DNA of 64,000 nucleotides from Candidatus Thorarchaeota archaeon (GCA_038893995.1 JAWAQK010000002.1:20529-84528); one strand, 5' to 3'; shown: positions 10,097 to 22,793, counted from the first letter of the stretch. A program made the numbers and translations. The notes: generated by a model from the sequence alone, not told the origin.

Positions 10097-10232
10097 GGGT
10101 CGGTAGTCTAGCTTGGTATGATACTTGCTTGGGGTGGCCTGTTATTAGTTAGGGCCTCCAATATGCAAGAGGACGGGCGTTCAAGACCGCATGCGACTCA
10201 CGCATGCTCTGGAATTCGCCCCCGGCCCACCA
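10097..10232 (+). tRNA. tRNA-Pro(GGG) with two introns: 29 nt at position 37/38 and 30 nt inside the T-loop
   Basis: Acceptor GGGTCGG pairs with CCGGCCC, then A and an encoded CCA. Anticodon stem CTTGC/GCAAG is perfect; the loop TTGGGG is interrupted by a 29-nt insert containing a GGCC...GGCC hairpin. T-stem GGGCG/CGCCC flanks TTC[30 nt]AATT; the insert holds a 7-bp palindrome GCATGCG-ACTCA-CGCATGC. Confidence 0.6.
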
Positions 10233-10331
10233 CCTTTCCCGATAGCTCACAGATTTCTCCAGTCTGAATCTCTTGATGCGACAACGTTCATCACTAATGT
10301 TATATTCAAGTACCATGGTCCTAGGCATGAT

Positions 10332-10437
10332 GCCGGGGTGTCCCAGCGGCTACGGAGGCGGTCTCGAAGCCATTCAGATGCGGCGATAGAACCGCTGTGC
10401 TTTGCACTCGTGGGTTCGAGTCCCATCCCCGGCGCCA
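10332..10437 (+). tRNA. tRNA-Ser(CGA), class II, with a 21-nt anticodon-loop intron
   Basis: Acceptor GCCGGGG/CCCCGGC plus G and an encoded CCA. Anticodon stem GCGGT/ACCGC, loop CTCGAA, then a 21-nt insert. Long variable arm GTGC-TTT-GCAC. T-arm GTGGG-TTCGAGT-CCCAT. Confidence 0.8.
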
Positions 10438-10470
10438 CCCGATTTCCATGGTATTGTCCACCTATTACAC

Positions 10471-10480
10471 TCTCTTTTCT
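10471..10480 (+). terminator. Oligo-T tract downstream of tRNA-Ser(CGA)
   Basis: TCTCTTTTCT about 35 nt after the tRNA 3' end; archaeal terminators are T-rich. Confidence 0.3.
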
Positions 10481-10512
10481 AGTATTGTGCAAAGCAATCT
10501 CATGGTGGCCTG

Positions 10513-10800
10513 ATGGACTCCATAGGGCAAATGGTCAAGATGGGTCTTAGAGAAAGAGGCATCATCTGTCACTCTGCCTATGTGATTCATGAGGAGTCGG
10601 GATCGATCATACTCCTCTCATTTCCCGCCAAGGAGGGCAATTCCCTTACTCCTGCACGTGTGGAACGTGCACTGAACGCGTTGGGACTGGGTGAATTCTC
10701 AGTGCATAGTGATTTTGCTAGGCTGAGCGCAGCTTTCCTACACCTAGAGGTGTCCATGGGTTCAAGGACAGAATCCGAAAGAGAGAGCAGTGCTCGCTAG
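10513..10800 (+). CDS. Hypothetical small protein (95 aa)
   Basis: The only ORF in 10440-11015 and it does not overlap a better gene; no recognisable motif. Confidence 0.25.
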   Translation: MDSIGQMVKMGLRERGIICHSAYVIHEESGSIILLSFPAKEGNSLTPARVERALNALGLGEFSVHSDFARLSAAFLHLEVSMGSRTESERESSAR

Positions 10801-11015
10801 GGACCGCATCAACACAGTCTTTCCTTGCGTTGGAGCATGTCTCTAGTTCCAACTAGAGAATCCGCCCTTGCTATCTCATACGGCGGCGACTGAGTATTGC
10901 TGACCTGTGTGGACGTCAATTGACAGATTGGACTCCAACCATAAGTGCCGGCTGCCTGAACAACTTTCATGACCTATGGGGTCCATTAGTGCAGTTTGCA
11001 TGACTGTGCTTTTGA

Positions 11016-11160
11016 TGGCGGGCGCGCCAGGATTTGAACCTGGGACATCTTGCTTGCTTCAAGTGACCGTAGAAGACCATTCAAGGATCACAGACCGAAG
11101 GCAAGCGCCCTATTGGCTCTTCGAGGACAATGTCCCGAATCCAAACTAGACTACGCGCCC
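11016..11160 (-). tRNA. tRNA-Arg(TCG), probable, with about 70 nt of insertions: about 25 nt next to the D-stem/position 26 and about 40 nt at 37/38
   Basis: Minus-strand acceptor GGGCGCG/CGCGCCC with G and an encoded CCA. Intact T-arm CCAGG-TTCAAAT-CCTGG. Anticodon stem CTTGC/GCAAG with loop CTTCGG interrupted by about 40 nt. A second insert lies between D-stem 3' strand GGAC and the anticodon stem. Confidence 0.55.
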
Positions 11161-21300: not shown

Positions 21301-21671
21301 ATTGGCAGGTCGCCAATGTACACCCTCTGAGTTTCCATCCTTGTAATATTGGCGCCTTCTTTTCTTACCGGCGTCATCTCCAAGTAAAGCTTGCTTGCAT
21401 AGGTCAGATTCCTGATGCGTGCTTCGTTGGGATAGAGTAGGTGCTCGCTACCGTCTGCCTCCCTCACGGTGGGAGCTTCTACGGTGATCTGGCCGAACTC
21501 CACGTAGTATCCCTCTACCTTCGGAGTCAATCTACCTATGCTATCCACGACTTCCTGGAGTCCGTACTTCACGAAACGGTTAAACGAGTCCAGATGTTGA
21601 CCCACGAGGCCTCTCTCTCTAAAGTAGGCCTCAATCACTGGCCAGTATTTTTGTCGCTCTTCCAGACCCAC
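18306..21671 (-). CDS. rpoB: DNA-directed RNA polymerase subunit B (unsplit)
   Basis: 1121 aa single ORF with a C-terminal zinc ribbon CEQCG...CPVCG. B'/B'' are fused, as in TACK, Thermococcales and Thermoplasmata. Confidence 0.93.
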   Translation of the reverse strand: MGLEERQKYWPVIEAYFRERGLVGQHLDSFNRFVKYGLQEVVDSIGRLTPKVEGYYVEFGQITVEAPTVREADGSEHLLYPNEARIRNLTYASKLYLEMTPVRKEGANITRMETQRVYIGDLPIMLRSEKCLLYGMSPEELIKHGEDPKDPGGYFIINGSERVLVTQEDLAPNRVLIEEASKSSSYTHIAKVFSTAKGFRAPVTIERKRTGELRVVFPSVPGRIPLAILMKALGIESDKEIVDIISDDEEIRNELIVTMEQAAPINAGADAEGGTTRENALDFIGKRVAVGQTKEYRLVRAQKVLERYFLPHIGTEEKHNLAKAYYLGQMVERLLELVLLKRDPDDKDHYANKRLKLSGDLLMSLFRLALYSLTRDIKYQLERNAVRGRKPNIRTAVRADVITQRMKHALATGNWVGGKAGVSQLLDRTNYISSLSHLRRVVSPLSRSQPHFEARDLHSTHWGKICPNETPEGPNCGLVKNIAMMAHISVGTSEEEVERALIKADVEPIERIRGKRTTKSADVFLNGRLVGVHPAPEVLVKTIRQRRRAGEIDQEVNIAYYKKTNEVQVNCDAGRVRRPLIVVENGRSRLTDEHLRMITEGTWGFSDLLRNGIVEFLDAEEEENTLIALYPENIGPNTTHLEIVPSTILGISAALIPFPERNQSPRNVYMAGMAKQSIGVPASNFKFRTDTRSHFFHYPQVPIVKTRAMDSIGYEERPAGQNFVVAVLSFEGYNIEDALIMNKASIERGLGRSSFARVYESEERKYPGGQEDKFEIPERSVRGYRASESYRNLGEDGIIETEVEVQGGDVLIGRTSPPRFLEEYSEFEFPLPDRRETSNAVRHGESGVIDTVILTETIDGNRLVKVKVRDLRIPELGDKFASRHGQKGVIGYIVPQEDVPFTEDGVVPDLIMNPHAIPSRMTIGQIMEMIAGKAGCMEGKQQDATPFCGVTEDELFRVLQSHGFQYNGREVMYSGVTGEKLKTDIFIGVIYYQRLHHMVADKIHARARGPVQILTRQPTEGRAREGGLRFGEMERDVLIGHGAAILLKGRLLDESDKSNMLVCEQCGLIGVYDRNKDQYYCPVCGPSVKVSSVVVSYAFKLLIQEMMSLGLACRLRLKEMI

Positions 21672-21841
21672 CTTGCCATCACTACCTGACTACTCAGAGG
21701 ACGAAGTAATGTTACAGGTTCCCAAGTGTTCAACATCCTCAGTCTTTGGTCCCATTTGATGCCGACCAGCCACTGTAACAGCCGTCCGTTTTACGCTCTG
21801 CTCGGCCCGTATCTGCAGACCCAGGCATTGAACGTTATACA

Positions 21842-21972
21842 TGGCGGGCTCGGCGGGATTTGCTCCAATACCGAGACACGCTCGGTCCGATTGAACCCGC
21901 AACCCTCAGGTGTCTCTCTCGGTTTCCCTTGAGATAAAAGCCTGCTGCGCTGCCTGGTTGCGCCACGAGCCC
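21842..21972 (-). tRNA. tRNA-Lys(TTT) with two introns: about 23 nt at 37/38 and about 31 nt in the T-loop
   Basis: Acceptor GGGCTCG/CGAGCCC with G and an encoded CCA. D-arm GCGC-AACCAGGCA-GCGC. Anticodon stem GCAGG and loop CTTTTA, then an insert with a TCTC...GAGA hairpin. T-stem GCGGG/CCCGC flanks TTCAA[about 31 nt]AT. Confidence 0.6.
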
Positions 21973-22291
21973 ATGCGGTTCAATCCAGGCGCGATCTGTT
22001 CCTTGTTCGGTACCATCTGGAGTGATGACTCACCCGCTATTGTTCTGACTGGTCACACATGCCTGAGCGGCAGAACTGCCTAGCAACGGAACCGGTGCTG
22101 GAACTGATAAAAGGCTTTCGATGAATCACACATTTCATGACTATGTCATCTCGTCTTACAGTTGTCTGAACTATTCCTTGCGTATCCATTGTCTGATCCG
22201 TCTAGGAGTAGCCATCTGGCCGACAAACTTAATAGGCATTAGGAGTGGCCGTCAATGTGGAGTGCTAGGATACATCTCCGCGTATCGAAGT

Positions 22292-22427
22292 GCCCCTGTG
22301 GTGTAGTCCGGCTAGCATACTAGACTGTCACACTTGGTTGACAGGTGTCCCAAGGGCTAGTCTGGTAACCCGGGTTCAAATTGGGTTGTGGTAAGCACAT
22401 CCCATGAAGGTCCCGGCGGGGGCGCCA
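22292..22427 (+). tRNA. tRNA with two insertions: about 25 nt in the anticodon loop and 30 nt in the T-loop. Anticodon is tentatively CAC (Val)
   Basis: Acceptor GCCCCTG/CGGGGGC (one G-U pair) with G and an encoded CCA. T-stem CCGGG/CCCGG flanks TTCAAAT[30 nt]. Best anticodon arm is AGACT-GTCACA-[25 nt]-T-AGTCT. The D-loop is long and the variable loop would be 6 nt, so the isotype is uncertain. Confidence 0.45.
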
Positions 22428-22438
22428 TCTTCTTTTCG
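22428..22438 (+). terminator. Oligo-T tract after the tRNA
   Basis: TCTTCTTTTCG immediately after the CCA end. Confidence 0.35.
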
Positions 22439-22656
22439 TCCTCTCAGGCTTGTGAACATATGTGAGGGATTCGGTGTGCTTCTCTTCTGGCTATCTGGTG
22501 AGCTTTGGGGACGTTCCCTATTGGCTATATCACTCTCGGACAAGTTTTCCTCTGGCACCTATTCGACGTGTTTGCCATGCCAGTGTTGATCCTTGTTCTG
22601 TGCTGTATCTAGTCACAACGTTTATGTGGAGTTCAGTATCGTTCCTCCTTCGAAGC

Positions 22657-22793
22657 GCCGGGATTTCCTAGCCTGGACGACTCTATGTGTCGGGGCAATA
22701 TGGAGCCAGCCTGCTAAGTTGGTGTGCTTGCACGCGAGGGTTCAAATGGCATCTGCACAGGCCGGATGCCTGAAACTCCCTCTCCCGGCGCCA
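22657..22793 (+). tRNA. tRNA-Ser(GCT), class II, with two introns: about 23 nt in the D-loop and 30 nt in the T-loop
   Basis: Acceptor GCCGGGA/TCCCGGC with G and an encoded CCA. D-arm TCC-TAGCCTGGAC[insert]GGA-G parallels the Ser(CGA) gene. Anticodon arm CCAGC-CTGCTAA-GTTGG. Variable arm GTGC-TT-GCAC. T-stem GAGGG/CCCTC flanks TTCAAAT[30 nt, hairpin GGCATC/GATGCC]. Confidence 0.6.

Follow-up and report, generated by a model that had tools for sequence, protein, structure and literature searches.

The DNA analysed here, a 64,000-nucleotide stretch of a Candidatus Thorarchaeota archaeon assembly (GCA_038893995.1, JAWAQK010000002.1:20529-84528; hereafter the window), contains exactly seven tRNA genes, beyond a few obvious chance matches, as found by a scan of both strands that required a 7-bp acceptor stem, a 5-bp T-stem with TTCRA after its 5' half, and CCA after a discriminator base. 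A looser scan of the same 64 kb without the T-arm requirement gave no additional credible tRNA gene, and the CCA end is genome-encoded in 7/7 genes, which argues against chance matches. Six of the genes are interrupted and span 103-142 nt, longer than a tRNA; five of the six carry two introns, for a total of 11 (table 1). They are, with high probability, functional Thorarchaeota tRNA genes interrupted by short introns of the archaeal bulge-helix-bulge (BHB) type. The original prediction, which counted seven tRNA genes at 10097-22793, six with inserts and five of these with two, is borne out by the gene models, with the qualification that the Pro(CGG) gene lies outside that range. Its 22292 tRNA proves to be Asp(GTC), and that at 11019 codes for Arg(TCG).

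Removal of the introns yields tRNAs for Pro-GGG, Ser-CGA, Arg-TCG, Lys-TTT, Asp-GTC and Ser-GCT, and all six spliced models are called by ARAGORN (intron search off) as complete cloverleaf tRNAs with the expected anticodons. When applied to the window itself with default settings, the same program finds 1/7 genes, namely Pro(CGG), called at 41101-41178 on the minus strand, and Rfam at the gathering threshold finds 2/7. The Rfam tRNA covariance model matches 4/7 genes overall, with large insertions at the places where the inserts had been predicted, and a permissive Rfam scan of 9500-23500 gave three tRNA matches with large internal insertions. As most such genes are missed by standard finders, Thorarchaeota metagenome-assembled genomes (MAGs) will look tRNA-poor unless the search is intron-aware. 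In every gene the exons lie in order within one 103-142 nt locus, so that these are not split or permuted tRNA genes; no Rfam match to group I or group II introns was found in the window at E <= 1, and the inserts, at only 21-40 nt, are far shorter than the ribozyme core of such self-splicing introns, which takes up hundreds of nt. Brute-force removal of BHB candidates followed by ARAGORN also works, but it leads to many equivalent solutions and was replaced by orthologue alignment with a register-specific BHB test. It is also observed that Pro(GGG) and Pro(CGG) have the same acceptor stem and a near-identical D-arm, yet contain two introns and none, respectively, so that intron load differs sharply between paralogous isoacceptors of one genome.

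Table 1. tRNA genes of the window and their introns (h, H and h' are the outer, central and inner helices of the BHB motif).
Feature	Position	Strand	Length (nt)	Intron site	Remarks
tRNA-Pro(GGG) gene	10097-10229	+	133		2 introns; CCA at 10230-10232; spliced product (74 nt) called tRNA-Pro(ggg) by ARAGORN
Pro(GGG) intron 1	10135-10163	+	29	37/38	H TTGG/CCAA, 4/4 bp; bulges GGT and TAT; h 5 bp; h' 2 bp
Pro(GGG) intron 2	10186-10215	+	30	T-loop, 59/60	H T54-A57 TTCA/TGGA, 4/4 bp; bulges AGA and ATT; h 5 bp; 7-bp inner hairpin behind a 2x2 internal loop; shuffle P (H 4/4 in register) = 0.0095
tRNA-Ser(CGA) gene	10332-10434	+	103		1 intron; CCA encoded; Rfam tRNA 36 bits; called directly by ARAGORN with the intron option, as is the spliced product
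Ser(CGA) intron	10369-10389	+	21	37/38	Slightly relaxed BHB; H 3/4 bp
tRNA-Arg(TCG) gene	11019-11160	-	142		2 introns; CCA encoded; spliced product (75 nt) called tRNA-Arg(tcg); Rfam tRNA 41 bits with insertions in D-loop and anticodon loop
Arg(TCG) intron 1	11114-11140	-	27	D-loop, right after G18G19	Strict hBHBh'; h 4 bp; H GTTT/GAGC; h' 6 bp; bulges GGA and CAA; shuffle P (H and h' equal or better) = 0.00005
Arg(TCG) intron 2	11055-11094	-	40	37/38	H CTTC/GAAG, 4/4 bp; h 5 bp
tRNA-Lys(TTT) gene	21845-21972	-	128		2 introns; CCA encoded; just upstream of rpoB; Rfam tRNA 38.9 bits
Lys(TTT) intron 1	21912-21934	-	23	37/38	Strict hBHBh'; H CTTT/AGAG
Lys(TTT) intron 2	21860-21890	-	31	T-loop, 58/59	H G53-C56 GTTC/GAGC; bulges AAT and AAA
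tRNA-Asp(GTC) gene	22292-22424	+	133		2 introns; CCA encoded; spliced product called by ARAGORN
Asp(GTC) intron 1	22332-22360	+	29	38/39 (most likely)	Relaxed HBh'; H 3/4 bp; h' 5 bp, CTTGG/CCAAG
Asp(GTC) intron 2	22381-22410	+	30	T-loop, 59/60	Strict hBHBh'; h 5 bp; H TTCA/TGAA; h' 4 bp; bulges AAT and GGT
tRNA-Ser(GCT) gene	22657-22790	+	134		2 introns; CCA encoded; spliced product (82 nt) called class II tRNA-Ser(gct)
Ser(GCT) intron 1	22677-22698	+	22	D-loop, right after G18G19	HBh'; H GCCT/GGGC; h' 4 bp; bulges GGA and AAT
Ser(GCT) intron 2	22747-22776	+	30	T-loop, 59/60	Strict hBHBh'; h 5 bp; H TTCA/TGAA; h' 8 bp; bulges AAT and ACT; motif matched by 0/20000 shuffles
tRNA-Pro(CGG) gene	41104-41178	-	75		Intron-free; ARAGORN; Rfam tRNA 56.4 bits; internal control for an uninterrupted gene

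Each junction was tested for the standard archaeal geometry, in which a 3-nt bulge stands on either side of a 4-bp central helix and the cut follows the second bulge base. The full 4/4-bp central helix and the 3-nt bulges are present in the exact splice register in 9/11 introns. In the control, each intron was shuffled while the exons were kept, and the re-formation of the 4-bp central helix in the exact register was scored, leading to P values of 0.007-0.09 for the central helix alone, and between <0.00005 and approximately 0.03 for the central helix with a directly abutting inner helix. For the four T-loop introns the helix-only values are 0.0095, 0.049, 0.030 and 0.015 (product, approx. 2e-7). 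Folding of the interrupted arms makes the stems and the inner hairpins visible (z-scores, −1.6 to −3.8), including a hairpin of its own in each of the four T-loop inserts, as had been predicted. Four introns lie at 37/38, one at 38/39, two in the D-loop after G18G19, where GGA is the first bulge common to Arg and Ser(GCT), three at 59/60 and one at 58/59. The observation of multiple, non-canonical tRNA introns with BHB-type junctions, with the T-loop as a recurrent site, is confirmed and is well above chance. As for individual junctions, the Arg D-loop intron was initially placed as 28 nt and changed to 27 nt on finding the strict hBHBh' motif. Placement of the first Asp intron at 37/38 was rejected because the central helix would have only 2/4 bp, by hand count, and G38 would be created versus the C38 of all orthologues; the position 38/39, which preserves C38, is the most likely one.

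The T-loop introns deserve separate consideration. The perfect T-stem halves GGGCG/CGCCC, GCGGG/CCCGC, GAGGG/CCCTC and CCGGG/CCCGG are indeed split by the 7 loop bases plus inserts of 30, 31, 30 and 30 nt, which lie at 59/60 in Pro(GGG), Asp and Ser(GCT), and at 58/59 in Lys. In the 59/60 motif the intact 5-bp T-stem is the outer helix, and in all three introns T54-A57 (TTCA) pairs with a TGAA or TGGA tract four to six bases from the intron 3' end; bases 58 and 59 with the first intron base make up the first bulge, and the last two intron bases with base 60 the second. Because the T-arm, like the anticodon arm, consists of a 5-bp stem and a 7-nt loop, cut after the sixth loop base, an intron at 59/60 reproduces the geometry of the canonical 37/38 site. 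The canonical archaeal hBHBh' intron at 37/38, reportedly described by Marck and Grosjean in 2003 (see PMC3241643), likewise has the 5-bp stem as outer helix, loop bases 1-4 in the central helix and the cut after loop base 6. Unlike it, the 59/60 introns are in the T-arm, so that the pre-tRNA has no intact T-loop until it is spliced. By this structural comparison, position 59/60 is the T-arm equivalent of the canonical site, and the geometry offers a simple structural reason for the recurrence of T-loop introns. The position around 56-60 that had been proposed for them is too loose: the exact location is 59/60, or 58/59 in Lys, and it is explained by BHB geometry.

When 14 T-loop introns in the loci compared (Thorarchaeota, Borrarchaeota and Thermoplasmata) are considered, 12 fit 59/60 best and two fit 58/59, the latter being the orthologous Lys genes of the window and of locus L203. 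The central helix covaries with base 57 across T-loop introns (TTCA/TGAA, TTCA/TGGA, TTCA/TGAG, TTCG/CGGA and TTCG/CGAA). Three loci from Thermoplasmata/Thermoplasmatales MAGs (L052, L056 and L080) have tRNA genes near the rpo operon with T-loop inserts of 30, 30 and 34 nt that fit 59/60, with TTCG/AGAA (3/4 bp), TTCG/CGGA and TTCG/CGAA, respectively, as central helices. Their occurrence implies that the 59/60 intron class is not limited to Asgard archaea.

Comparison with relatives was made on ten related Thorarchaeota loci (RpoB 87-90% identical), in which the Lys and Asp genes lie upstream of rpoB as in the window; the orthologues were aligned to the spliced models allowing long insert blocks, and the junctions were then refined by the BHB test. 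A metagenome scan with the Lys 5' 14-mer GGGCTCGTGGCGCA had given almost only chance matches, and no Thorarchaeota Lys orthologue among the matches listed. The exons of the orthologues match the window's own at 65-70 of 74 bases (88-95% identity), while the intron sequences are unrelated unless the intron is itself orthologous. Orthologous Lys genes contain from zero to three introns over seven positions, including 29/30, 37/38, 44-46, 53/54, 58/59 and 59/60, and orthologous Asp genes from zero to two over three positions (D-loop; 37/38 or 38/39; 59/60). Next to the window Lys gene, with introns at 37/38 (23 nt) and 58/59 (31 nt), stand those with one intron at 53/54 (30 nt; L002) or in the variable region (approx. 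30-32 nt; L003), with two, at 37/38 (24 nt) and 53/54 (30 nt) in L004, in the variable region (approx. 35 nt) and at 59/60 (30 nt) in L005, or at 37/38 (41 nt) and 59/60 (30 nt) in L202, and with three in L203, at 29/30 (34 nt), in the variable region (approx. 30 nt) and at 58/59 (30 nt); the Lys genes of L204, L205 and L206 have none (74 nt). For Asp, the window pattern of 38/39 (29 nt) and 59/60 (30 nt) compares with 37/38 (30 nt) and 59/60 (30 nt) in L202, 37/38 (34 nt) and 59/60 (31 nt) in L203, the D-loop (approx. 30 nt) and the anticodon side at 38/39 (30 nt) in L004, 37/38 only (30-31 nt) in L002, L204 and L205, and the D-loop only (approx. 30 nt) in L206, whereas the L003 gene (75 nt) has no intron.

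The intron-free Lys genes of L204-L206 and the Asp gene of L003 match the spliced models in length and register, the latter aligning to the spliced Asp model without an intron-sized gap, and wherever an orthologue lacks a given intron the exon sequence is continuous across that junction. These genes constitute the strongest available evidence, short of RNA, for the removal of the inserts. A BHB motif is found at or beside the junction in nearly all orthologue inserts. The Asp 37/38 introns of L002, L202, L203, L204 and L205 form strict BHB motifs and are orthologous to the window 38/39 intron, and the Lys T-loop introns of L203 and of the window share the position, the central helix and the 3' end GGAGCAA. 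Taken across the ten loci, the alignments show that tRNA introns are gained and lost rapidly among these relatives, with shifting positions. In L206 the Asp gene (5023-5127) is displaced by approximately 4.7 kb and lies on the other strand compared with the other loci, the Lys gene is intron-free, and a Cas12f/TnpB-like gene (PF07282) is found at 7581-9257, between the tRNA genes and rpoB; the TnpB-like gene and the displaced Asp gene point to a local rearrangement by a mobile element.

With respect to the mechanism, we infer that cleavage, ligation and the enzymes responsible are those of ordinary, protein-mediated archaeal tRNA splicing in a lineage with known intron-dense tRNA genes, so that no new kind of element would be involved. 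Each gene would be transcribed as a pre-tRNA that folds at every exon-intron junction into a 4-bp helix with a 3-nt bulge at either end, with T54-N57 pairing with a YGRA tract near the intron 3' end at 59/60; the EndA endonuclease, reported in Asgard archaea as a broad-specificity (alpha-beta)2 enzyme with an L1 loop, would cut within both bulges, and an RtcB-type ligase would join the exons. Several points weigh against this scheme. Two of the 11 introns (Ser-CGA 37/38 and Asp 38/39) show a relaxed motif, with 3/4 bp and an inner helix, and the Lys 58/59 and Arg D-loop junctions were chosen partly by best BHB, which makes their shuffle P values optimistic. Minimum-energy folds recover the stems and the inner hairpins, whereas the 4-bp central helix is absent from some of them. 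Moreover, no EndA or RtcB gene was found by Pfam scans of the 64-kb window, and their presence in this genome is presumed from the literature on the phylum.

The possibility that the interrupted genes are decaying pseudogenes, with functional intron-free copies elsewhere and inserts that are never removed, would agree with the fact that standard finders miss them or score them low. It is nevertheless very improbable, since the exons are 88-95% conserved across relatives while the intron sequence turns over completely, every stem is intact, the encoded CCA is kept in all genes and the inserts lie exactly at sites that form a BHB; the genes cover six anticodons, and the Lys and Asp genes are found at the same orthologous loci in relatives. 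Even harder to credit is an origin of the inserts as scars or attachment-site remnants of integrating mobile elements, or as assembly artefacts. Archaeal integrative elements are known to target the 3' halves of tRNA genes (PMC3293823), and the TnpB/Cas12f-like gene adjoins the orthologous locus in L206, but the inserts are only 21-40 nt long, do not contain duplicated tRNA segments and each form a BHB in register, and in the window neither direct tRNA repeats flanking the inserts nor adjoining integrase genes are found. Also against such an origin are an identical 3-kb sequence in the separate record GCA_038825165.1 and inserts of the same kind in independent MAGs of related species.

A different question is whether the T-loop introns are copies of one mobile family, which spread between tRNA genes, in the manner of the intron transposition proposed for Thermoproteales, by using the near-universal T54-R57 as one half of the BHB. 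Such a proposal does not contradict their being spliced BHB introns, but adds a claim on their origin, and seems unlikely on balance. In its favour are the length of 28-31 nt in 13/14 T-loop introns, the fixed position, and the different intron positions in orthologous genes, which require frequent gain. In pairwise alignment against shuffles, neither the four T-loop introns nor the full set of 11 in the window resemble one another significantly, so that the related family of inserts suggested by the original prediction finds no support beyond chance. When the set is extended to 32 introns of the window and relatives (496 pairs), clear similarity is found only for orthologous introns at the same site (for instance L204/L205 and L002/L205 for Asp; L003/L005 and L003/L203 in the Lys variable region; window/L203 for the Lys T-loop; L002/L004 for Lys 53/54). 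Two cross-tRNA pairs are suggestive: the 59/60 introns of window Ser(GCT) and L202 Asp, which share GCC-GATGCCTGAAA (z = 4.2), and the L203 Lys 29/30 intron with that in the L004 Asp D-loop (z = 4.6). They may be relics of introns passed from one tRNA gene to another, but z values of approximately 4 are borderline among 496 pairs, and the need to pair with TTCA dictates some of the common 3' sequence.

Nor does the near-identical length, from which a related family had been argued, set the T-loop inserts apart. The 32 introns range from 21 to 41 nt, 15/32 being exactly 30 nt, and introns of this length occur at D-loop, anticodon, variable-region, 53/54 and T-loop positions; approximately 30 nt being the modal length at other positions as well, length alone is no mark of a T-loop family. 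A mobile T-loop intron class is unsupported by the present data, and the broader notion that the approximately 30-nt 59/60 introns are a distinct class actively spreading across Asgard archaea, and present also in some Thermoplasmata, is more doubtful still. If it were correct, the near-invariant T54-R57 and one short YGRA tract would allow the same intron to form a cleavable BHB in any tRNA T-loop, copies could move, for example, by gene conversion, or by the endonuclease/ligase reaction running backwards with subsequent reverse transcription, and the use of 59/60 to the same extent as the ancestral 37/38, as well as the uniform length, would be explained.

BHB introns are well established in D-loops, T-loops, variable regions and acceptor stems (PMC3241643; PMC3293823; PMC12397907). 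Asgard genomes, including Thorarchaeota SMTZ1-83, are reported to encode the (alpha-beta)2 form of EndA, whose L1 loop gives it broad specificity, and to have incomplete tRNA sets, a hint that disrupted genes went undetected (PMC5829648). For Atabeyarchaeia and Freyarchaeia, introns were found in 92-95% of the tRNA genes, over half of which have several, often non-canonical (Valentin-Alvarado et al. 2024, PMC11291895). The window resembles these genomes, which belong to the same superphylum, in its mostly interrupted genes and multiple, non-canonical introns, and differs from them in coming from a different class, Thorarchaeota. Parsing of Supplementary Data 4 of that paper gave 181 tRNAscan-SE introns with an overall length peak at 28-31 nt; 30 of them have 39 mature nt downstream, which corresponds to 37/38 including CCA, and another 30/181 have 17 nt downstream, which corresponds to 59/60 including CCA, these being mostly 27-31 nt long with a mode of 29. 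Both site assignments are deduced from the downstream distances, as the table does not state positions, and, if they hold, published Asgard data already contain the recurrent 59/60 intron of approximately 30 nt. The main text of that paper does not discuss intron positions, 59/60 geometry or length, and the present work goes beyond it in comparing Lys and Asp orthologues across ten close relatives, with zero to three introns at shifting sites.

Multi-intron tRNA genes and intron transposition have been described in Thermoproteales (Sugahara 2008 and Fujishima 2010, as reported in PMC4033280 and PMC4090602). As far as these secondary accounts go, these resemble the present genes in that a gene can hold as many as three BHB introns, located in the D-arm, anticodon arm, variable region and T-arm, in that introns come and go rapidly among related species, and in that splicing depends on an EndA of the (alpha-beta)2 form with a specificity loop. 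Differences are the phylum and, apparently, the intron families; in addition, the transposition evidence in Thermoproteales, according to the same accounts, consists of near-identical introns in different tRNAs, which were looked for here and not convincingly found. What the window adds is modest, namely a Thorarchaeota instance, a structural reason for the hotspot at 59/60, the D-loop site after G19 that two genes have in common, the orthologue series with zero to three introns at shifting positions and the modal length of approximately 30 nt. With its ten orthologous loci, it shows on a small scale how fast tRNA introns turn over in an Asgard lineage, which bears on the spread of protein-spliced introns in the archaeal relatives of eukaryotes.

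The source organism is an Asgard archaeon of the Thorarchaeota. RpoB of the window is 100% identical to a protein named Candidatus Thorarchaeota archaeon by NCBI, the nearest relatives of its RpoA' come from MAGs of Thorarchaeota and Promethearchaeota (85% identity), and the 3 kb upstream of rpoB are those found identical in GCA_038825165.1. Pfam scans show the genes around the tRNA genes to be the archaeal cluster rpoB-rpoA'-rpoA''-L30e-NusA-S12-S7 and EF-1alpha, and reveal Cdc6, RFC, MCM, Hel308, aIF5B, RpoD, RPA, STT3 and an Arf-family small GTPase elsewhere in the window. It had been considered odd that an intron pattern known mainly from Thermoproteales and other TACK lineages should occur in a genome encoding PolD. 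PolD DP2 is indeed encoded, at 50788-54378, but the host being an Asgard archaeon, a group in which such introns are known, the puzzle does not arise.

A few other features of the window may be mentioned. The Arf/Ras-family small GTPase (165 aa; 33468-33965, plus strand; Pfam Arf, E = 1e-13), immediately upstream of rpoD, is a typical Asgard ‘eukaryotic signature’ protein. An archaeal signal recognition particle (SRP) RNA match covers 28378-28689 on the minus strand over the full model length (RF01857; 81.9 bits; E = 1e-16), which falls short of the RF01857 gathering score (96.5), and a spurious open reading frame (ORF) of 103 aa at 28356-28667 overlaps it; a 169-aa RNase H/RVT_3-like protein (27850-28359, minus strand) adjoins the SRP RNA gene. 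An Rfam match to the C/D-box RNA sR49 at 20882-20933 (E = 2.6), inside rpoB, was dismissed as noise. On the 3' side of the S7 gene (region 11479-12363) there is a 162-aa ORF (11875-12363, minus strand) with no Pfam match, and competing ORFs overlap on both strands; in relatives the genes after S7 vary (a Cys/Met pyridoxal phosphate enzyme, a flavodoxin), so that synteny stops there. Finally, several Asgard RpoB homologues of approximately 1610-1630 aa (P0061, P0064, P0094, P0097, P0099, P0106 and P0109) contain the intein domain PF14890, one of them (P0099) being named Helarchaeota by NCBI, while RpoB of the window is free of it.

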